Virus record (IMG/VR): IMGVR_UViG_3300022538_000930
Source of the DNA: a virus
Length of the DNA stretch: 12,178 bases
Strand: one strand, 5' to 3'
Shown: positions 1,105 through 12,178 of the stretch, piece by piece
Numbering within the stretch: position 1 is the stretch's first letter
Layout of the letters: each line of letters starts with the position of its first letter
Program-made: the position numbers and the translations under genes
The notes under the pieces: generated by a model
Told to the model about the DNA's origin: nothing
Databases searched by the model: none
The model's input: only the letters and a program-made list of their open reading frames with translations

Positions 1105-1160
1105 GGAGATGCGATGGAACTGGATGAAGTCTGGCGCAGGTTCGAATCCTGCCGTCTCCA
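1105..1160 (+). other. tRNA-like acceptor/T-arm minihelix (tRNA gene fragment, not a complete tRNA); possible att core or processing signal
   Basis: gcagg-ttcgaat-cctgc (1136-1152) is a canonical T-arm with a GTTCGAATC loop. It is followed by a 7-nt acceptor 3' strand cgtctcc and discriminator a (1153-1160). ggagatg (1105-1111) can pair with that strand using one G-T pair. Only 24 nt separate the two strands, no D or anticodon stem can be drawn there, and position 8 is C rather than T. Confidence 0.6.
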
Positions 1161-1225: not shown

Positions 1226-1420
1226 TTATTTTAATTTAGTTTTGCACTGCACAAAGGCAACAAAACAGATCTTCTTCATTTGAGAACTCTCTTTAATCAG
1301 AATAACATCAAATGGGCTTTTAGAGCCAGCTGTTCTCACAGCAATCCAGCCTTTTTCTTTAAAGATATTTACAACTTCTTGTTCAAGTCTTCTTCCTCTT
1401 TCATAGTTTTTGTTTGGCAT
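1226..1420 (-). CDS. 64-aa Hjc-type (archaeal Holliday-junction resolvase / PD-(D/E)xK) mini-nuclease, C-terminally short
   Basis: YERGRRLEQEVVNIFKEKGWIAVRTAGSKSPFDVILIK....FVAFVQCKTK parallels the Hjc pattern from memory: ER..V..L...GF.VVR...SGSK..PDIIA....IEVKS. The conserved E, the R..GS motif and the D are present. The final motif reads Q-C-K instead of E-x-K. The ORF ends 5 residues later, whereas Hjc proteins are usually ~120-140 aa. Confidence 0.6.
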   Translation of the reverse strand: MPNKNYERGRRLEQEVVNIFKEKGWIAVRTAGSKSPFDVILIKESSQMKKICFVAFVQCKTKLK

Positions 1421-1783: not shown

Positions 1784-1945
1784 TTACACGTGACTTTCTT
1801 TTGTATATTGACCTTTAGATAACTCAGGAAACAATAATTCTCCATTTTGTTTTCTAATTTGAGAGTACTTAAGTTTCTTTAACTCTTCCTGCTCCCACTC
1901 TTCTAATTGATATGCATGAACTGAGAACGGAAAGTTAAAAGCCAT
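1784..1945 (-). CDS. 53-aa hypothetical protein (shorter start preferred over track ORF 1784-2053)
   Basis: The sequence is MAFNFPFSVHAYQLEEWEQEELKKLKYSQIRKQNGELLFPELSKGQYTKESHV. The ATG (A at 1945) lies 30 nt downstream of the palindromic TATA box ttatataa (1968-1975), the same spacing as the other promoters. The longer N-terminal extension would overlap a predicted + strand promoter at 2019. Confidence 0.4.
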   Translation of the reverse strand: MAFNFPFSVHAYQLEEWEQEELKKLKYSQIRKQNGELLFPELSKGQYTKESHV

Positions 1946-1967
1946 GAATAATAGAGGGGATTGTTGT

Positions 1968-1975
1968 TTATATAA
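1968..1975 (-). promoter_or_regulatory. TATA box (ttatataa) for the minus-strand 53-aa ORF
   Basis: The distance from the TATA start to the ATG is 30 nt, matching the 27-30 nt rule seen at the other promoters in this genome. Confidence 0.4.
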
Positions 1976-2018
1976 GGTGTTGAGTACTTGAAAATAACAG
2001 CACTCTAACGAAGAAAGA

Positions 2019-2026
2019 TTTATATA
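2019..2026 (+). promoter_or_regulatory. Orphan BRE/TATA-like promoter (agaaaga-tttatata) with no substantial ORF downstream
   Basis: gaagaaagatttatatag closely resembles the capsid-operon promoter cagaaagatttaaatata at 8626-8641. The only ATG at roughly the right distance (2044, 25 nt) opens a 24-codon ORF. The next real gene starts at 2454. Confidence 0.4.
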
Positions 2027-2120
2027 GATAGAAGACTTTAGAAATGTACTCATTTCTACATACCAACATACATAAGCCCTCTTTGTTAGAGTGCATAAAG
2101 GCTCTCACGGCCACATAGAC

Positions 2121-2224
2121 CCCGCGCCTTCCCTTCTTAAGAAGTATGTGCAGTCTAAGCTTAGCTTACATAGTCTCTTGGGAGCAGAATTATTTAGGTA
2201 CACGCGAATTAAGAAGACCGCGGG
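2121..2224. repeat. Interrupted inverted repeat (cccgcg..cttcttaa / ttaagaag..cgcggg) enclosing two perfect palindromes
   Basis: 2121-2126 is complementary to 2219-2224, and 2133-2140 to 2209-2216, giving 14 bp with an asymmetric internal loop. Inside are cttcttaagaag (2133-2144, a 12-bp perfect palindrome) and ctaagcttag (2155-2164, a 10-bp perfect palindrome). Confidence 0.6.
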
Positions 2225-2230
2225 CTAATT

Positions 2231-2278
2231 GGGGTGTAATCACTACTAATCAGTAGTGACACCCCTTTATAGTAGTGA
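2231..2278. repeat. 14-bp bulged hairpin plus a third copy of its arm motif (agtagtga)
   Basis: ggggtg (2231-2236) pairs with cacccc (2260-2265), and tcactact (2240-2247) pairs with agtagtga (2252-2259). The loop is aatc and the bulge is taa. agtagtga recurs as a direct repeat at 2271-2278. Confidence 0.6.
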
Positions 2279-2314
2279 TTTGTTCACTTAGGTCACCTTA
2301 GTGCACAACAGAAT

Positions 2315-2436
2315 AATTCCCGGAAATTTTCACTTGAAAAAAAGCGGGAAATTTAAAAGAACGCGACATTCAAATTCCTGCATATATAAGTTCGCTTATC
2401 CCGACCGACAAAATTTTAGAAAATTATTTAAATTCC
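2315..2436. promoter_or_regulatory. Cluster of GGAAATT / AATTCC half-sites across the terL upstream region
   Basis: aattcc occurs at 2315-2320, 2373-2378 and 2431-2436, the last overlapping the TATA box. ggaaatt occurs at 2322-2328 and 2347-2353. The first two sites form an imperfect palindrome, aattcc-c-ggaaatt. Confidence 0.3.
2427..2434 (+). promoter_or_regulatory. TATA box (tttaaatt) for terL, leaderless spacing
   Basis: It lies 27 nt upstream of ATG 2454 in an AT-rich context. Confidence 0.5.
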
Positions 2437-2453
2437 AAAATATTATAATTATT

Positions 2454-3770
2454 ATGGAAATCAAGCTCGACAAGTGGCAGCAAGAAATCTTAAATTATGA
2501 TGGAGACATTCTTTTGTGCAAAGGGCGAAGGATTGGCGGCACTGAAATCTTTTCAATAAAAGCAGCAGAAAGAATGATTAAGAAACCCGGGGTTAAAATT
2601 GTCTTTGTTTCACTAACAGAAGATCAAGCCAAATTATGCATATCTGTTGCCCATGAATATTTGATAAGGAATTATAAGAAATTCATTGGAAAAGGCAAGA
2701 AAAAGCCACAATTAGGAGCATTATTCTTAACAAATGGCTCGTCTATGATAGTGAGGGCTGTTGGGGACACTGGAAAGGGTGTACGGGGCTTTGATGGGGA
2801 TGTATTAGGAATAGATGAAGCTCCATGGCAACCTGCGGCAATGTGGAGAGCTGCACGACCGATTATAACAACTAATGATGGGGAGATATGGATGTGGGGA
2901 ACCCCTGCGGAAGATAAAGGCTATTTTTATGAACAATATGATAAAGCATATAATAAAAAAGACCCAGACGCGCGCTTTAAGGTCTGGCATAAGAACACAG
3001 AAGAGGTTTTGTTTAATAGACCTGTCTGCGCGAGTTGGACACAGAAACGGAAGGAAGGAGCAATAAGAATTTTAGCAGAAGAAAAGAGAGACATGACAGA
3101 CATAGAGTACGGAAATGAATATCTCGGGCTCTTCCTCTCTGAACTTAAGAGATTCTTCGACGACGATTTAATAAAAAAGGCGTGCATCTTAGAAAAGGAA
3201 CCAGACATGATCGGAAAGAGATATTTAGGAGTTGATGTTGGGAGAATGTTTGATCCAAGCACATTTGAAGATGTCTGTAAGAAAGGAAATATAGTTTATC
3301 ATGTGGATAGTTATACAACTCACAAAACCTACACAAATGAAACTCAGGATAAAATAATAAAACTTAATGAGGCTGTGAATTATAAGAAGATTGGGATTGA
3401 TGCGGGCTCTGGCGCGTTGGGGGTTGGTGTCTACGACAACCTCATGGTAGTTTCAAAAATAAGGGGGAAGTTAGAAGCGATGAATAATAGATCAATAGCA
3501 TTAGATAAGGAAGGAAAAAAGAAACAGAGAACAAAGAGATTAGATTATTATAACAATCTGAAAGCGATGATGCAGAACGTAGAAATTAAACTTTTAAAGG
3601 ACGATGAAGTAATTGCAAGCCTTCGTTCTGCAAGATGGGATATTGCAGATGAGAATGATCCTAATAGCAAAATGGTGATCATGGGCAACAACCTCCATAA
3701 AGTAGAGGCTTTGATGCGCGCAGCAGAGCTTGCCAAAAAAGACAAAAGTTTAAATATATGGGTTCGTTGA
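2454..3770 (+). CDS. terL: Terminase large subunit (438 aa)
   Basis: The ATPase domain has a Walker A-like LCKGRRIGGTE, a Walker B DVLGIDEA, and a coupling motif WGTP. The nuclease domain has the acidic motifs YLGVDVGR, IGIDAGSG and LLKDDEV. Start moved to ATG 2454 (MEIKLDKWQQEIL), because the GTG-2301 extension is low-complexity and contains the promoter. Confidence 0.9.
   Translation: MEIKLDKWQQEILNYDGDILLCKGRRIGGTEIFSIKAAERMIKKPGVKIVFVSLTEDQAKLCISVAHEYLIRNYKKFIGKGKKKPQLGALFLTNGSSMIVRAVGDTGKGVRGFDGDVLGIDEAPWQPAAMWRAARPIITTNDGEIWMWGTPAEDKGYFYEQYDKAYNKKDPDARFKVWHKNTEEVLFNRPVCASWTQKRKEGAIRILAEEKRDMTDIEYGNEYLGLFLSELKRFFDDDLIKKACILEKEPDMIGKRYLGVDVGRMFDPSTFEDVCKKGNIVYHVDSYTTHKTYTNETQDKIIKLNEAVNYKKIGIDAGSGALGVGVYDNLMVVSKIRGKLEAMNNRSIALDKEGKKKQRTKRLDYYNNLKAMMQNVEIKLLKDDEVIASLRSARWDIADENDPNSKMVIMGNNLHKVEALMRAAELAKKDKSLNIWVR
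3749..3756 (+). promoter_or_regulatory. TATA box (tttaaata) inside the terL 3' end, serving ORF 3777
   Basis: acaaaag-tttaaata lies 28 nt upstream of ATG 3777. Confidence 0.5.
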
Positions 3771-7486: not shown

Positions 7487-8085
7487 TGTCAAGCTTAATT
7501 TTTGGAACAAGAGGGGCTTATCATATGTCTGAACTTTTTAAAACATTTGCACAGGCACAGATGTTCACTTGGAAACGGAAAAATCTGAATGTTTGTGAAT
7601 GCGGGCAGGAAAAGAAAGGACATAAAAAAGGGAAGAAGTATATTAAAATGATTTCTAAGGATTTTGTTAAATTTATCAGCAAAGATGAAAAAATATTATG
7701 CCGAAGATGTATTAAAAAGGAATTAGTATGCAACAAATTTAAACCCCGGGAAGAGCTGACGTCTGTTCAGGCATCACTCCGCCCTATTCAGTTATGGGAA
7801 TATGTTTTTCCCGACGAGAGCATGGCAGATGTATTTTCTGCATTAGGTTTAACTGCAGAGGACGGAAAGCCTGAAGCTACAAAGCACTGGCCTCTTTCTA
7901 AAACTAAAATGTGGGCGCTGAGAAAAGCCTTAAAGTGTGAACCAATCCCTGATGTCAAATGGCAGAGACCCCAGAGATTTATTATGCATACGGGGATTTC
8001 ACTATACCCGATTGGAATAAGAAGAGATGAAAGGGGAGAGATGTCAGCACCGGGAGAAGGACACTGGCAGCAGGAATTAATATGA
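7486..8085 (+). CDS. 199-aa zinc-ribbon-containing hypothetical protein
   Basis: The SD aaggaggag lies upstream, and there is a TAATG overlap. The zinc-ribbon segment is CECGQEKKGHKKGKKYIKMISKDFVKFISKDEKILCRRC. The C-terminal ~110 aa have no recognisable motif. Confidence 0.7.
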   Translation: MSSLIFGTRGAYHMSELFKTFAQAQMFTWKRKNLNVCECGQEKKGHKKGKKYIKMISKDFVKFISKDEKILCRRCIKKELVCNKFKPREELTSVQASLRPIQLWEYVFPDESMADVFSALGLTAEDGKPEATKHWPLSKTKMWALRKALKCEPIPDVKWQRPQRFIMHTGISLYPIGIRRDERGEMSAPGEGHWQQELI

Positions 8086-8348: not shown

Positions 8349-8638
8349 AAATAATAGAATTACTTGCAGAAGTAAAAATAAGATTATCAATAGGGCAGCA
8401 GTGGTTTTATGAGCTTAGAAACGCAGTTTTGATCGGCGCGGGTTTGAAAGTTCTCCTTGATTTATCTTTAAAGAATGCTATAATCCTTACAGCTTTTATT
8501 TTAATGGGTTTCTTTGTCGTCGGTGCACTTGATTTAGACTGGCTTAGGCTCGCTCAAAAGATGGCAGAATTAACAACCTCCAAATATAATCCTCATTTGA
8601 ATAAAATTAGCCGTTTAGTGAAGAACAGAAAGATTTAA
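8345..8638 (+). CDS. 97-aa membrane protein (one to two TM segments, basic C-terminus)
   Basis: ATGA overlap with the upstream ORF. Hydrophobic segments are AVLIGAGLKVLL and AIILTAFILMGFFVVGAL. The architecture is holin-like, but no homology is claimed. Confidence 0.6.
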   Translation: MKIIELLAEVKIRLSIGQQWFYELRNAVLIGAGLKVLLDLSLKNAIILTAFILMGFFVVGALDLDWLRLAQKMAELTTSKYNPHLNKISRLVKNRKI

Positions 8639-8662
8639 ATATAAGGTATACCCCGGTATACC
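8634..8662 (+). promoter_or_regulatory. Capsid-operon promoter: TATA tttaaata (8634-8641) plus two tandem GGTATACC palindromes (8645-8652, 8655-8662)
   Basis: cagaaaga-tttaaata lies 29 nt upstream of ATG 8663. The spacer taaggtataccccggtatacc holds two copies of a self-complementary 8-mer spaced 10 bp apart, abutting the start codon. Confidence 0.65.
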
Positions 8663-9079
8663 ATGGCTATTGCCGCACTTCAACCAATCAAAGTTTTTCT
8701 TAGGGGAGCTCAGAATGACGGGGAACCTCTGACCTGGTCCTGCGCATCCGGAACAGCGATTGCCAAGTGGACTTCTTTAAAATTTGCAGACGGAAGGATA
8801 GTTTCAGAATCTGGAGCTGCAGGAGATTTCTTTGCAGGATTTGCAGCTGCAGATAAAGACGGCACAGACCACTCTACTCAAATCGCAGTAATTCAAAACT
8901 CAGTTATGAATGTTGTTTGTTCACTCGGCTGCCTTGCAGGAGACCTTTTGGCAACAGCTTCACCATCAGGCACTTTCGCACCAGTAATTAATAATACTTC
9001 TTCGCAGGCAGTTATTGCAGGGGTTGCTATGGATAGTGTTGGCGCTGGTGAAAGAGTAAATATGAGGGAAAATCTATAA
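8663..9079 (+). CDS. 138-aa head decoration / capsid cement-like protein (DUF2190-like pattern)
   Basis: The gene lies immediately upstream of the MCP gene. It is Gly/Ala/Val-rich with a beta pattern: FAGFAAADKDGTD..IAVIQNSVMNVV..LAGDLLATASPSGTFAPV..VIAGVAMDSVGAGERVNM. This is typical of small decoration proteins encoded before HK97-type MCPs, a by-eye call. Confidence 0.45.
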   Translation: MAIAALQPIKVFLRGAQNDGEPLTWSCASGTAIAKWTSLKFADGRIVSESGAAGDFFAGFAAADKDGTDHSTQIAVIQNSVMNVVCSLGCLAGDLLATASPSGTFAPVINNTSSQAVIAGVAMDSVGAGERVNMRENL

Positions 9080-9080
9080 A

Positions 9081-9977
9081 ATGGCAACTGGAAGCGCGGG
9101 TTCAGTATGGGCTGGTGATGTTGAGGTAGGCGGAACTGAGCTACGAAAGGAAGTTGTTGATATTGTTATTAAAGGACGAGCAGACCCAACTTATAAGTGG
9201 AAGCAAGCTGTTGCTATTTCTAAAACAAATGCTAATAAAAATACATTCTGGCGGGAAGACCCTGACTCTTTGGATGAGCCAGCAGGCGGGTCAATTAAGG
9301 GAATTCCAAGAGGTGGAGATTTCCCTCAGGGAACTGTTCAGTGGGAAGAACACACTGCGGTCCTGCAGAAATACGGCTTCCGTGACTTTGTTTTCTGGGA
9401 AGATATCAGAACAAATGATATTAATGTTATGAAGAGGACAATCTATAAGATTACTGATAAGACTATTAAAACGGTTGATGAGGAGATTAAAGATATTCTA
9501 TCAGAGGGGGGAACTCCGGTTGATATTCAAAGCGTGACAATAACAGGCTCACGAAGATGGGCAGCTTCAAGTGCAGCTATCATGGATGATATGATGCATG
9601 CCAAGCAGTTGATTGGTGAAAAGGATTATGATACTTCAAACCTTATGATGTTTATCAGTGAACAAGACCATAGAAACATGGTGAACTATATTTATGAAAA
9701 GGGAGCACAAGCGCCTTCTTTCGGCACTGAAGTGGCTAAGAATGGACGTGTGGGGGGTTTAGCAGGCATTAAGAATATAGTAGTAACAAACTCATTAAAA
9801 AACGCATCCTTTGCTCTTGTTGTAGTTCCAAAAGTATGTGGAACATGGAAAGAGAACTTTGCTCTCTCATCAGATTTAACAAGTGAACCTTTCAAGGGAA
9901 CAAGGGTGACAGTCTGCGAAGTTGGAGTCACACAACTGACAGACCCTAAAGCAATTTGCATGATTAAAGACACTTAG
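9081..9977 (+). CDS. Major capsid protein, HK97-fold-like (298 aa)
   Basis: Size and synteny fit (scaffold-like, then decoration-like, then this gene). The long helix RTIYKITDKTIKTVDEEIKDIL is spine-helix-like. The C-terminal beta-rich core is GGLAGIKNIVVTNSL...ALVVVPKVCGTWKENFAL...GTRVTVCEVGVTQ. Confidence 0.65.
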   Translation: MATGSAGSVWAGDVEVGGTELRKEVVDIVIKGRADPTYKWKQAVAISKTNANKNTFWREDPDSLDEPAGGSIKGIPRGGDFPQGTVQWEEHTAVLQKYGFRDFVFWEDIRTNDINVMKRTIYKITDKTIKTVDEEIKDILSEGGTPVDIQSVTITGSRRWAASSAAIMDDMMHAKQLIGEKDYDTSNLMMFISEQDHRNMVNYIYEKGAQAPSFGTEVAKNGRVGGLAGIKNIVVTNSLKNASFALVVVPKVCGTWKENFALSSDLTSEPFKGTRVTVCEVGVTQLTDPKAICMIKDT

Positions 9978-11124: not shown

Positions 11125-11144
11125 GGGGGGTGCGCAAACCCCCC
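11125..11144. other. GC hairpin gggggg-tgcgcaaa-cccccc
   Basis: A perfect 6-bp G:C stem with an 8-nt loop sits in an otherwise AT-rich intergenic region, 8 nt upstream of ATG 11153. Confidence 0.6.
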
Positions 11145-11302: not shown

Positions 11303-11356
11303 TATTTATACTATTTATACTATTTATACTATTTATACTATTTATACTATTTTACC
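11303..11356. repeat. 9-bp tandem repeat tatttatac x5 perfect plus one degenerate copy
   Basis: Perfect copies lie at 11303, 11312, 11321, 11330 and 11339, and tattttacc follows at 11348. The array sits between the 49-aa ORF stop and the mini-ORF operon promoter. Confidence 0.9.
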
Positions 11357-11397
11357 AAAAGCGAAAGGTTTAAATAGTGTGAGTGATTGTTTATTGT
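11355..11397 (+). promoter_or_regulatory. Promoter of the mini-ORF operon (TATA tttaaata at 11369-11376); paralogue of 7123-7165
   Basis: gcgaaagg-tttaaata lies 29 nt upstream of ATG 11398. About 80% identity to the 7123-7165 promoter over 43 nt. Confidence 0.65.
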
Positions 11398-11860: not shown

Positions 11861-12105
11861 AACTTAAAACTTTGAAGGACTTTATAAAAGGATATGAAGG
11901 ATTTGGCAGCTATCCAAAAGATAAGCACATTTCTGTGTGTATTATTAGAGCATTTGATGAATTAAAACAAGAAGCAATCAAGTGGATGAAGCATTTTGAT
12001 GGTTGTATGAAAAACACCAAAAGTGATACTGCTTGGCATAGTTATAGAGGAAGCAAACACTCTTTAATGAATTTCTTCAACATAACAGAAGAGGAGATAG
12101 CATGA
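11857..12105 (+). CDS. 82-aa hypothetical protein
   Basis: ORF track. It has ATGA overlaps at both ends. Its last 68 nt are repeated at 1-68 because of the terminal overlap. Confidence 0.65.
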   Translation: MKLKTLKDFIKGYEGFGSYPKDKHISVCIIRAFDELKQEAIKWMKHFDGCMKNTKSDTAWHSYRGSKHSLMNFFNITEEEIA

Positions 12106-12178
12106 AACACATAAGAGCATCATTTGAAGATGAAGAATTTAAGCCAATTAGTAAGCTGAAAGACAAGCTCAAAAAAGG
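12038..12178. repeat. Terminal overlap, copy 2 (identical to 1-141)
   Basis: See copy 1. The partial ORF beginning at ATG 12102 is the same gene as 65-208. Confidence 0.95.

Follow-up and report, generated by a model that had tools for sequence, protein, structure and literature searches.

A non-coding stretch upstream of terL in a 12-kb tailed virus as a candidate DNA-level control module

Positions 1946-2453 of the 12,178-nt stretch analysed here (the window; IMG/VR record IMGVR_UViG_3300022538_000930) separate a small leftward ORF from the large terminase gene terL. We assign a probability of roughly one half to the reading that they form a genuine control region common to the relatives of this virus, composed of promoters and putative protein-binding DNA repeats and not of a structured RNA, and that this region would serve as the virus's main DNA-level module for switching and maintenance. 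In relatives whose terL is 42-79% identical the module has the order TTTATATAG promoter, start-site palindrome, 200-400 nt of fast-evolving ORF-free DNA, 24-bp palindrome and a conserved box at -53. The combination of an orphan promoter and an ORF-free stretch is kept across a large virus family, which indicates that the region is functional.

Organization of the region

The features of the region and its flanks are listed by coordinates and strand.

1784-1945, minus strand: 53-aa ORF, divergently transcribed, a candidate regulator only
1969-1976, minus strand: TATA box CTTATATA for the ATG at 1945, predicted start 1947, leader of about 2 nt by the +22 nt rule (see below)
2000-2014 and 2080-2094, unstranded: 15-nt inverted repeat around the rightward promoter and the start-site palindrome, arms 93% complementary
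2012-2026, plus strand: BRE/TATA of the rightward orphan promoter, AGAAAGA followed by TTTATATA (TATA 2019-2026), predicted start A2048
2039-2058, unstranded: perfect 8+8 palindrome TAGAAATG-TACT-CATTTCTA, proposed operator, centred 22 nt past the TATA on the predicted start
2121-2140 and 2209-2224, unstranded: interrupted inverted repeat of the GC-richer core, enclosing the next two palindromes
2133-2144, unstranded: 12-bp palindrome CTTCTTAAGAAG
2155-2164, unstranded: 10-bp palindrome CTAAGCTTAG
2231-2280, unstranded: bulged hairpin (2231-2265) and third repeat, an iteron-like array of GTAGTG-type sites at 2238-2248 (inverted), 2251-2261 and 2270-2280
2308-2320, plus strand: right-arm remnant of the 24-bp dif-like palindrome, ACAGAATAATTCC versus ACCGAATAACTCC, no left arm
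2315-2436, unstranded: GGAAWTT half-site array at 2315-2321 (minus, GGGAATT variant), 2322-2328 (plus), 2347-2353 (plus), 2372-2378 (minus) and 2430-2436 (minus)
2357-2446, plus strand: the sole part of the region for which relatives have nucleotide homologues, containing the next two elements
2401-2415, plus strand: conserved box CCGACCGACAAAATT, found in 14 family contigs
2424-2431, plus strand: terL TATA TTATTTAA
2454-3770, plus strand: terL, here the first gene of the late operon (Pfam Terminase_6N, E = 9.4e-9; 349 homologues)

Almost all sequence features named in the initial annotation were recovered in place. It had overlooked the 8+8 palindrome, the 15-nt inverted repeat, the minus-strand TATA box and the TATA of terL with its box. 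Nor had it considered that ordinary transcription control, by divergent promoters, a palindrome resembling an operator and the conserved promoter of terL, takes up a large part of the region.

Coding capacity, composition and conservation

The region had been said to encode nothing larger than 24 codons. This is true of ATG-initiated ORFs near the promoter, but past the predicted start the longest such ORF has 36 codons (2146). GTG-start ORFs of 45 aa (2091-2228, plus strand) and 48 aa (1968-2114, minus strand) are present as well. No homologues of the region's ORFs were found, and 1946-2453 contains no conserved ORF. A recoded or hidden gene was rejected, because stop codons of all three types cut all six frames of 1946-2453 and all three types terminate real genes. 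In tblastx searches the nucleotide-conserved block 2357-2446 gave the sole signal, matching in several frames and on both strands. Decay of a relative's gene to a pseudogene was therefore rejected too, and a weak 45-aa match was spurious, being antisense within a portal-like gene.

A G+C content higher than in the flanks had been noted. With 36.2% GC against 39.6% in the genome this does not apply to the whole region, but it does to 2100-2300 (45.3%), a modestly GC-rich core; 16.5% of all 200-nt windows reach 45% GC. The module makes up about 500 nt of a gene-poor span of about 1.4 kb (1066-2453), or about one tenth of the genome, and the equivalent span in the relative L019 measures about 1.1 kb. 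Two perfect inverted repeats with 8-bp arms lie in 2030-2290. In our scan, which counts each repeat twice, these correspond to 4 entries versus 0.28 expected from the genome-wide density (13 entries).

GenBank phages contained no DNA relatives of the region, and for 2050-2300 no nucleotide homologue was detectable even in relatives with a terL 71-79% identical.

Divergent promoters and the start-site palindrome

The rightward BRE/TATA element had been described as nearly identical to the capsid promoter. GAAAGATTTATATAGA (2013-2028) and the promoter of gene 8663 (AAAGATTTAAATATA) are identical in 13 of 15 positions, and the element also matches the promoter at 11364. The 15-mer class comprises three sites in the genome (2014, 8629 and 11364). 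With its TATA 8-mer, a purine-rich BRE and its resemblance to these sister promoters, the element has the make-up of an archaeal BRE/TATA promoter. In the leaderless genes 8663 and 11398 the distance from the TATA 8-mer to the A of the ATG is exactly 22 nt. All start sites given here are predicted from geometry by this +22 nt rule, calibrated on these two genes of the genome. The rule places the rightward start at A2048 and leaves the ATG at 2044 upstream of it, so that the promoter appears to be truly orphan. The TTTATATAG promoter element is also present in L016, L019, L071 and L073.

A dyad over the start site at a conserved position is found both in the window (+22) and in relatives. Perfect palindromes with arms of at least 6 bp occur at 11 of the 34 distinct TTTATATAG sites in the family, versus 9% of shuffles. 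Nine of the 11 are centred 21.5-23.5 nt past the TATA, and the sequence is different each time. A further start-site palindrome was read by eye in L303. After 8 of the 9 start-site-palindrome promoters having downstream sequence, at least 376 nt follow that contain no ORF as long as 50 aa, and a dif-like arm usually lies 180-335 nt downstream of such TTTATATAG promoters.

L016 has a 10-nt repeat whose positions relative to its own TATA match those of the 15-nt inverted repeat. A long hairpin spanning the whole promoter was rejected as a conserved structure: its arms pair in the window, but inspection of L016 by eye gave no extended pairing.

The N-terminus of the divergent 53-aa ORF resembles, by eye, an uncalled minus-strand ORF of L016 (about 2027 to 1881). 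The 53-aa ORF was rejected as an identifiable repressor, having no Pfam match, no protein-database homologue and no recognisable DNA-binding domain. No candidate repressor showed a recognisable fold. The small proteins of the genome also include a 116-aa zinc-ribbon protein (487-837). The divergent gene order is not universal, the upstream gene of L019 being on the same strand as the promoter.

Late promoter and repeat arrays

The conserved box lies exactly 53 nt upstream of the first late ATG in the window, in L016 and in L073. T-tracts of five or more are absent between the predicted rightward start and terL (2048-2453).

The inverted repeats reported earlier for the core could all be verified: the interrupted repeat, both palindromes, the bulged hairpin at 2231-2265 and the third copy of its arm, AGTAGTGA (2270-2280). 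The C-tract ACCCCGCGCCTTCCC within 2121-2224 corresponds weakly to the CCCC-N-CCCCC tracts seen in relatives. GTAGTG occurs four times in the genome, three times within 2241-2277, and GTAGTG-containing repeats are also found in L016, L103 and L295. The 35-nt hairpin is absent from IMG/VR and its exact palindrome from the other IMG/VR viruses. A relaxed form of the palindrome gave 4 IMG/VR matches, all in unrelated contigs, and the hairpin was therefore rejected as a widely shared host-type site.

The GGAAATT/AATTCC half-sites also proved to be real. GGAAWTT occurs 9 times in the genome, 4 of them within 2322-2436, and none of 300 shuffles placed 4 within 130 nt. The middle three sites of the array are spaced at 25 nt, and the array brackets the late promoter. 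As arrays, the GTAGTG and GGAAWTT sites are private to the window genome.

Host-like sites in the module of relatives

The 24-bp family palindrome was found in 97 IMG/VR contigs, about 66 of which carry a terL relative. Four MAGs, of which three carry an archaeal annotation and one that of Patescibacteria, have its host counterpart at a distance of 80-420 nt from xerA; in DPANN genomes this site takes the form TTCGG-N3-ACCGAATAACT. As the family palindrome matches this site adjoining xerA, it looks like dif, which is an 11-6-11 inverted repeat (PMC2958812, PMC8371274; for the Xer/dif background see PMC2958812). In terms of sequence, a dif-type match to the xerA-side site of DPANN genomes is present in most close relatives (L006, L016, L103, L295-L297 and L303).

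A PWM scan of the window gave no intact dif-like site. In an nhmmer alignment, window positions 2279-2422 correspond to positions 77-215 of L097, a span that includes the palindrome of L097. The window has lost the dif-like palindrome except for one arm; L019, too, retains the right arm alone. In some relatives the family palindrome is located beside the capsid promoter, about 6 kb from terL. It could accordingly be a transcription-factor site shared with the promoter region of host xerA and not a recombination site.

Boxes of the type TTCC-N3-GGAA are the second host-like element. They are about 6-fold enriched near the module in the family (34 boxes), have the forms TTCCAnnGGAAAy and TTCCAnnGGAAA and occur in about one quarter of the family contigs, with 1-4 boxes per module that are often paired in inverted orientation. 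Their sequence agrees with that of the Pyrococcus mini-ORB TTCCAGTGGAACT (PMC1904270).

The leader of relatives thus holds a host dif-like site and, in some, mini-ORB-like boxes, and the genome is without a replication protein; the module is therefore probably also a site for host machinery.

A proposed switch and maintenance module

The elements themselves are observed, as are their geometry, their conservation and the non-random way in which they cluster. From these we infer transcription itself, a repressor and roles in replication initiation and Xer recombination. Two back-to-back promoters about 45 bp apart would fire in opposite directions, one leftward into the 53-aa gene. The rightward one (TATA 2019-2026) would start at about 2048 in the middle of a palindrome that is flanked by a further inverted repeat. 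We take this palindrome for the operator at which a dimeric, virus-specific repressor would keep RNA polymerase from being recruited, a known mode of action of archaeal repressors. Once the promoter is open, the transcript would cross about 400 nt without an oligo-T terminator into terL. On its way it would pass the putative protein-binding GTAGTG and GGAAWTT arrays and then the late promoter proper, where the box at -53 and the TATA at 2424-2431 would give a leaderless terL mRNA.

Maintenance may depend on Orc1/Cdc6 for initiation and on XerA for multimer resolution or circle formation, possibly aided by transcription. In the window genome, where the dif-like site has decayed and no ORB is present, the private repeats may fill these roles. 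The maintenance part is probable and is drawn from synteny, the window lacking both linking elements. A point against the switch reading is that regulation alone does not explain why a genome of 12 kb should bear the cost of an untranslated leader of 400 nt.

The divergent-promoter immunity or switch region of lambda, PR/PRM with its operators, and the archaeal repressors bound over a start site, such as the SSV1 and SIRV1 regulators, LrpA and Phr, are the closest counterparts of the switch part. Shared with these systems are the back-to-back promoters, a dyad exactly over the rightward start, fixed in position but varying in sequence between related viruses, and a rightward transcript that would run toward structural and lytic genes. 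The region differs from them in that its candidate repressor gene has no recognisable fold and about 400 nt after the promoter are free of genes. Nothing points to a temperate virus: it has no integrase, and the DPANN MAG contigs fetched held no provirus copies at the dif-like site, just small co-binned viral contigs.

For the Xer part, cer in ColE1, psi in pSC101 and the dif-like attP of IMEX elements such as CTX-phi are known sites that exploit the host recombinase. Like these, relatives without a recombinase of their own carry a near-perfect copy of the chromosomal site beside xerA, with about 200 nt of non-coding flank and a promoter nearby. The likeness is one of sequence, the dif identity of the host site being presumed. 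The differences are that the hosts here would be DPANN archaea with a single XerA, that no integration was seen and that the window is without the site.

The module is likely to be key to cycle control and copying in a 12-kb tailed archaeal virus without replication genes, and a promoter gate that is fixed in position and virus-specific could define immunity groups. The ORB-like boxes of relatives point to recruitment of host Orc1. The literature searched yielded no earlier archaeal virus that makes use of the host's Xer system, and the copy of the xerA-side site may thus be the first such case; it also provides a sequence-based means of linking these viruses to DPANN hosts. A wider proposal is speculative, and we would not expect it to hold in full. 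A very large undescribed family of head-tail viruses of about 12 kb, probably living on DPANN archaea and devoid of replication and recombination enzymes, might have all of its genome maintenance gathered in a single non-coding module that is transcribed, gated by a repressor and built in imitation of host sites (the dif-like XerA site and the mini-ORB). The hypervariable start palindrome would then be a new virus-specific gate coupling transcription, replication and multimer resolution or circle formation, and the lineage of the window might have replaced the borrowed sites by private iterons.

Alternative functions of the region

A replication origin as the primary function is rather unlikely. 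Host Orc1/Cdc6 or a small viral protein bound to the GTAGTG/GGAAWTT repeats would open the AT-rich stretches 2326-2360 or 2405-2453, with activation by transcription from 2048, much as the PR promoter of lambda activates the origin of that phage. In its favour, the 12 kb contain no recognisable replication gene: outside the structural block there is no ORF of the size of a replication protein, and apart from the Hjc resolvase none of the small early proteins had a significant match in Pfam. The iteron-like clusters, the position at the divergence point of transcription and the large gene-poor span of window and L019 also fit an origin, as do the mini-ORB-like boxes enriched in the same module of relatives. 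Archaeal origins of the oriC type have ORB and mini-ORB boxes bound by Orc1/Cdc6 (PMC1904270), and the boxes of relatives resemble these also in having AT-rich stretches nearby. However, about three quarters of the family contigs are without such boxes, among them the window and its closest relatives (L016, L019, L296, L297 and L103). A PWM scan placed none in the window's non-coding DNA, and the best score anywhere in the window, 9.4, was below the mean shuffle maximum of 11.2. An adjacent orc1/cdc6 gene is likewise missing, no ORF beyond the structural block being of suitable size and Pfam giving no match. GC skew is uninformative as an origin marker because nearly all genes are on the plus strand. 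The origin reading is thus supported through the relatives and only indirectly for the window, not through sites of its own.

A pac or cos site, which the initial annotation favoured since it saw no small-terminase gene, is doubtful. Here the terminase, by itself or together with a small subunit that has escaped recognition, would bind the arrays before its own gene and cut nearby to start headful packaging, after the viral Hjc resolvase has cleared branched DNA. The location just upstream of terL is typical for pac sites, and the arrays (GGAAWTT five times, GTAGTG three times) are similar to the pac sites of P1 and SPP1, which are flanked by repeats. The assembly maps as a circle of 12,037 bp with a 141-nt overlap, which is compatible with headful packaging. 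Contig ends of relatives are over-represented close to the module, with 10 of 67 lying within 2% of the contig's extent versus 4% expected, but ends near palindromes may be assembly artefacts. Furthermore, the repeats are private, yet a terL conserved at 71-79% identity should read a partly conserved signal, and only the promoter block is conserved. Several relatives have part of the module about 6 kb away from terL, and the distant position of the family palindrome speaks, for this element at least, against a packaging signal tied to terL. In P1, pac is accompanied by loxP-Cre cyclisation, and relatives likewise have a putative site-specific recombination site close to the presumed packaging start of a circularly permuted genome. 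Here the recombinase would be host XerA, and the comparison is inapplicable to the window, where the site is absent.

It is very improbable that the stretch is mostly decaying DNA, in which the Hjc gene was relocated and the dif-like site lost through a rearrangement, after which the sequence between the promoters has been drifting without function. The Hjc gene is indeed on the minus strand at 1226-1420 here and on the plus strand immediately upstream of terL in L016 and L001, a single arm of the family palindrome is left, and the central 250 nt have no homologues. Set against this, the distance from TATA to box stays canonical (385 nt here versus 326-375 nt in L016, L073 and L303), repeat clusters and perfect palindromes exceed chance expectation, and pressure on size is strong in a 12-kb genome whose genes overlap.

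Equally remote is a structured ncRNA of about 220-400 nt that would start at 2048, end at the GC hairpin 2231-2265 followed by TTTAT, and act as packaging-motor RNA, regulatory RNA or replication primer. A strong promoter without an ORF behind it is what such a gene would show, and the orphan promoter and ORF-free stretch are conserved. A GC hairpin followed by T(T)TATAG is present both in the window and in L016, and folding of the plus strand beats shuffles (z = -3.4). The minus strand, however, folds nearly as well (z = -2.5). The main stems, 2039-2058 and 2240-2259 (the core of the hairpin 2231-2265), are perfect Watson-Crick palindromes without G-U pairs, and the homologous hairpin (its loop) is inverted in L071 relative to L016, which argues against constraint at the RNA level. 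An RNA starting at the centre of the start-site palindrome would hold only half of it. The lack of sequence homology in 2050-2300 leaves no alignable relatives. Rfam, including Phage_pRNA, gave no match in 1946-2453 at E <= 1 and none in four relatives at E <= 0.1, and no tRNA was found in the region.

The more specific suggestion of a packaging RNA like the phi29 pRNA is not supported by these results: no Rfam family, no homology in 2050-2300, no fold recognisably shared by relatives, two strands that fold about alike and stems that are strand-symmetric DNA palindromes. The likeness lies in a non-coding stretch adjoining the gene of the packaging ATPase in a very small tailed-virus genome. 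In contrast to phi29, terL encodes a classical Terminase_6N enzyme and not a phi29-type ATPase, and the map is circular without the inverted terminal repeat of a protein-primed genome. The present evidence does not justify annotating the region as an ncRNA gene or as a pac site. The best ncRNA candidate of this genome is located elsewhere, in a tRNA-like element at 1105-1159.

Organization of the gene-free region

With a probability of about 50%, we read the region upstream of the large terminase gene terL (positions 1946-2453) as a gated switch combined with a maintenance module. In line with the initial annotation it holds no genes: stops occur in every frame, and TAA, TAG and TGA each terminate real genes. 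Downstream of the predicted transcription start, ATG ORFs reach 36 codons at most; ORFs beginning with GTG reach 45 and 48 codons, and no homologue was found for any ATG or GTG ORF of 1946-2453. The single 45-aa tblastx match lay antisense inside a portal-like gene and was rejected.

All promoters recognisable by eye in the window are of the archaeal BRE/TATA type. Genes 8663 and 11398 each have a TTTAAATA box exactly 22 nt ahead of the ATG and are therefore leaderless. The element at 2012-2026 shares 13 of 15 positions with the promoter of gene 8663, which bears out the likeness claimed earlier, and also matches the early promoter at 11364. Just upstream of that early promoter (11364-11378), five tandem copies of the TATA-box-like 9-mer TATTTATAC occupy 11303-11347.

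Features of the gene-free region and two identified genes
1969-1976, minus strand: TATA of the 53-aa gene starting at 1945 (from sequence)
2000-2014 / 2080-2094: 15-nt inverted repeat bracketing the TATA 2019-2026 and the palindrome 2039-2058
2019-2026, plus strand: TTTATATA box; the minus-strand TATA lies about 45 bp to its left
2039-2058: perfect palindrome TAGAAATG-TACT-CATTTCTA, centre 22 nt after the TATA
2121-2224: core of higher GC, palindromes nested within it
2231-2280: bulged hairpin made by two GTAGTG sites, plus a third such site
2308-2320: ACAGAATAATTCC, right-arm remnant of the family palindrome
2315-2436: GGAAWTT array
2401-2415: CCGACCGACAAAATT box
2424-2431: TTATTTAA, 22 nt 5' of the terL ATG
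2454-3770: large terminase (Pfam Terminase_6N)
9081-9977: HK97-type capsid protein (Pfam search)

The palindrome 2039-2058 coincides with the start predicted from the spacing in the virus's own leaderless genes. All inverted repeats and half-sites listed initially were found. The region 2030-2290 has two perfect 8+8 inverted repeats (four entries against 0.28 expected in a scan that counts each repeat twice). Three of the four genomic GTAGTG copies fall within 2241-2277, and four of nine GGAAWTT copies within 2322-2436, a clustering attained in 0 of 300 shuffles. The reported GC richness applied only to 2100-2300 (45.3%, equalled by one in six windows), whereas the whole region has 36.2% GC versus 39.6% in the genome. 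No run of five or more T occurs on the plus strand between 2048 and 2453.

A module shared by related viruses

Within 1066-2453, nucleotide homologues were found only for the Hjc resolvase gene and the block 2357-2446. Despite this sparse homology the architecture is common to relatives. The contigs compared (L016, L019, L071, L073, L008, L296/L055, L295, L297, L006, L103, L303, L304; terL 42-79% identical) show the following order wholly or partly, some being cut short or without a clear TATA.

Order of elements in the module of relatives
First: TTTATATAG-type TATA
Second: palindrome
Third: ORF-free 200-400 nt, C-tracts frequent
Fourth: 24-bp palindrome AGTTATTCGGTATACCGAATAACT
Fifth: box TCCCnACYGACAAAAYT, about 80-150 nt beyond the 24-bp palindrome
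Sixth: first late gene

Three measurements firmly support this architecture. Perfect palindromes with arms of 6-11 bp were found at 11 of 34 distinct TTTATATAG sites of family contigs, compared to 9% in shuffles; in nine of the 11 the centre falls 21.5-23.5 nt beyond the TATA, and these nine all differ in sequence. Downstream of eight of the nine such promoters with downstream sequence, at least 376 nt lack an ORF of 50 aa or more. Finally, the window, L016 and L073 all have the conserved box exactly 53 nt ahead of their first late ATG. The TATA-to-box distance is 385 nt in the window versus 326-375 nt in L016, L073 and L303; the window thus keeps the canonical length of the module. The closest relatives also carry GTAGTG-containing repeats (GTAGTGAAACACTAC in L016, TGTAGTGCCTAAAA in L103 and L295). 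The hairpin palindrome of the window is not common to other viruses.

The family palindrome and its chromosomal counterpart

The 24-bp palindrome is a hallmark of the family, present in about 90 IMG/VR contigs besides those named here (L006 54-77; L016 2467-2490; L071 2503-2526; L295 502-527; L303 548-571). Scanning IMG/VR for TTCGG-N3-ACCGAATAACT yielded 97 contigs, mostly of 11-12.8 kb, about 66 of them with a terL relative. In one genome per prokaryotic species the matches were mostly due to chance (about 280 expected by our own estimate for 16 specified bases in 596 Gb), around ten being located in DPANN MAGs (Woese-, Pace-, Nano- and Aenigmatarchaeota). Host loci with a palindrome-like site are L174, L187, L203 and L211. 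In four large contigs, three annotated as archaeal and one as Patescibacteria, the site lies 80-420 nt from a xerA-type gene, with one arm conserved and the other looser; no viral genes were found near it. The NCBI XerA equivalog cut-off of 220 bits was reached or nearly so (221 and 214 bits). The Xer site dif consists of 11-6-11 inverted repeats bound by Xer recombinases, and Pyrococcus XerA recombines dif plasmids without a partner protein (PMC2958812, PMC8371274).

We read the family palindrome as copied from a site conserved on host chromosomes, the host's dif being the simplest candidate; it may be a dif mimic. Since it matches a xerA-adjacent DPANN chromosomal site, DPANN archaea are the likely hosts, an indirect assignment. 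Our literature search found no paper on an archaeal virus with a dif-like site. Alternatively, the palindrome could be a transcription factor site common to the xerA upstream region. This is favored by L086, in which two full tandem copies directly precede the capsid-operon promoter, the equivalent of the window's 8663 promoter, about 4 kb downstream of terL. The site is thus linked to promoter regions and not to terL. In the window, the capsid operon has a TATA at 8634-8641 and a leaderless ATG at 8663; the stretch separating them holds, at 8644-8662, two tandem palindromes of the sequence GGTATACC, the core of the dif-like palindrome.

A PWM scan detected no intact dif-like palindrome in the window. 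Its right-arm remnant (2308-2320) was aligned by nhmmer to the palindrome position of L097; L019 likewise has the right arm only, and neither arm was found in L039 and L022.

Proposed function and alternatives

Our results, all computational, suggest that access to the late genes is gated at the rightward promoter. Here a dimer of a virus-specific protein would occupy the start-site palindrome and, with help from the inverted repeat around it, keep polymerase from being recruited; once the gate is lifted, transcription would cross the leader with its many binding sites and reach terL. The actual late promoter, made up of the box at -53 and the TATA 2424-2431, probably receives a boost from a conserved factor bound to the box. 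These steps are proposed from sequence geometry and conservation. Judging from synteny, the module is probably also where replication begins and where multimers are resolved or circles formed, with sites diverged in this genome. No replication protein was found in the genome, and relatives carry host-type dif and ORB sites in the leader, which makes a maintenance role probable.

In its working the module would come closest to the immunity or switch regions of phages; in relatives it would be fused to a cer/psi-like Xer site plus an origin of the ORB type. The window's sequence does not conform to an ORB origin or a dif-type site, whereas it conforms to an archaeal promoter with a putative operator over the start site. 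Viral control regions are a known kind of element; what appears to be new is an orphan promoter with a palindrome whose position is fixed while its sequence varies, a long leader without genes and, in relatives, the putatively borrowed host sites in an archaeal virus.

A replication origin as the main function is possible but unlikely. In relatives, the sequence up to 600 nt from the palindrome or conserved box shows an approximately 6-fold enrichment of TTCC-N3-GGAA boxes, typically TTCCA(T/C)(A/T)GGAAA(C/T)G, with 34 sites and frequent inverted pairs. They match the archaeal mini-ORB, e.g. TTCCAGTGGAACT of Pyrococcus, whose TTCC and GAA motifs are invariant (PMC1904270). Boxes of the form TTCCAnnGGAAAy are located in L295 (312, 455), L196 (1509/1530), L113 (5177-5347), L099 (2825-3139) and L128 (50). 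ORB-like boxes occur in only about a quarter of family contigs, and a PWM scan found none in the window. Lacking this box and the dif-like palindrome apart from the right-arm remnant, the window therefore represents a derived version of the module.

A pac site, suggested initially, is a doubtful explanation, the family palindrome also standing at the L086 capsid promoter. As separate observations, 10 of 67 contigs (L080-L173; 4% expected) have the palindrome no further than 2% of their length from one end, and L002 begins mid-palindrome; the excess could stem from the assembly breaking where sequence is variable or palindromic, or from true termini close by. By eye, some relatives have a small HNH-endonuclease-like gene directly upstream of terL or the module (L019 1934-2212, L303 about 1-313); none was found in the window. 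HNH-terminase pairing is typical of cos-type packaging.

A structured ncRNA is improbable. Both strands fold better than shuffles, with z -3.4 for the plus and z -2.5 for the minus strand; each of the two main stems is a palindrome with Watson-Crick pairing throughout, and RNA from the predicted start would carry just half of the start-site palindrome. In the homologous GC stem-loops of L016 (2377-2418) and L071 (2372-2400), the loop TTCACCCCCTACCCCCTC of the former is the reverse complement in the latter, while the orientation of the flanking promoter and palindrome is kept; apparently the part enclosed by the two stem arms was inverted. Taken together, this points to DNA-level sites over RNA. 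The suggested phi29 pRNA-like packaging RNA was not borne out, with no Rfam match in the region or its relatives; among three defining features examined for pRNA family membership, two failed, and for the third, a structure kept across relatives, searches gave no alignable sequences of 2050-2300 in which to count covariation. A drifting remnant is about as improbable, the module having kept its canonical length.

Virus family and further observations

Positions 1-141 and 12038-12178 of the 12,178-nt sequence are identical direct overlaps and the assembly is therefore a circular map of about 12,037 bp true length; such an overlap is what assembly at k = 141 typically leaves when the genome is circular or circularly permuted. 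A portal gene was found at the corresponding position in relatives. Public metagenomes contained 349 terL homologues, many on 11-13 kb contigs and several with assembly overlaps, indicating a large family whose members are very small head-tail viruses; it was first sighted in marine sediment.

A Hjc-type Holliday-junction resolvase gene (1226-1420, minus strand; Pfam Hjc 22.2 bits, cut-off 21.1) has homologues in L016 and L001 on the plus strand directly between conserved box and terL, which suggests that the window's lineage underwent a rearrangement. Between the two minus-strand genes lie another 360 nt or so without an ORF (1421-1783); here two TATA-like elements in inverted orientation flank AGGGGCCTG (1491-1519), and short parts resemble L016 1670-1915 by eye. 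The 88-nt gap after the last structural gene holds the G6/C6 hairpin GGGGGGTGCGCAAACCCCCC (11125-11144), 8 nt ahead of the ATG 11153, which resembles G/C-tract hairpins in the relatives' modules. A weak snoU61-like Rfam match (C/D-box snoRNA; 7677-7758, plus strand) within a coding gene is most likely due to chance (23 bits, gathering score 55, E = 0.26).

A tRNA-like element at 1105-1159 (plus strand) recurs in L019 (34-87, 221-284), L295 (68-123), L080, L082, L089, L093 and L149. It comprises a 7-bp acceptor stem, the T arm GCAGGTTCGAATCCTGC and discriminator A, with TTGGG next in most cases; in place of D and anticodon arms there is a variable insert of 21-69 nt. ARAGORN called no tRNA there; the Rfam tmRNA model matches the acceptor and T-arm part below the gathering score (E = 9e-6). 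Acceptor stems are paired at 7/7 positions in eleven copies with at least five clearly different sequences (e.g. GGAGATG/CGTCTCC, GGCAGAG/CTCTGCC, GGGGGAG/CTCCCCC, GCCCCAG/CTGGGGC), hence real covariation. This element is the genome's best ncRNA candidate.
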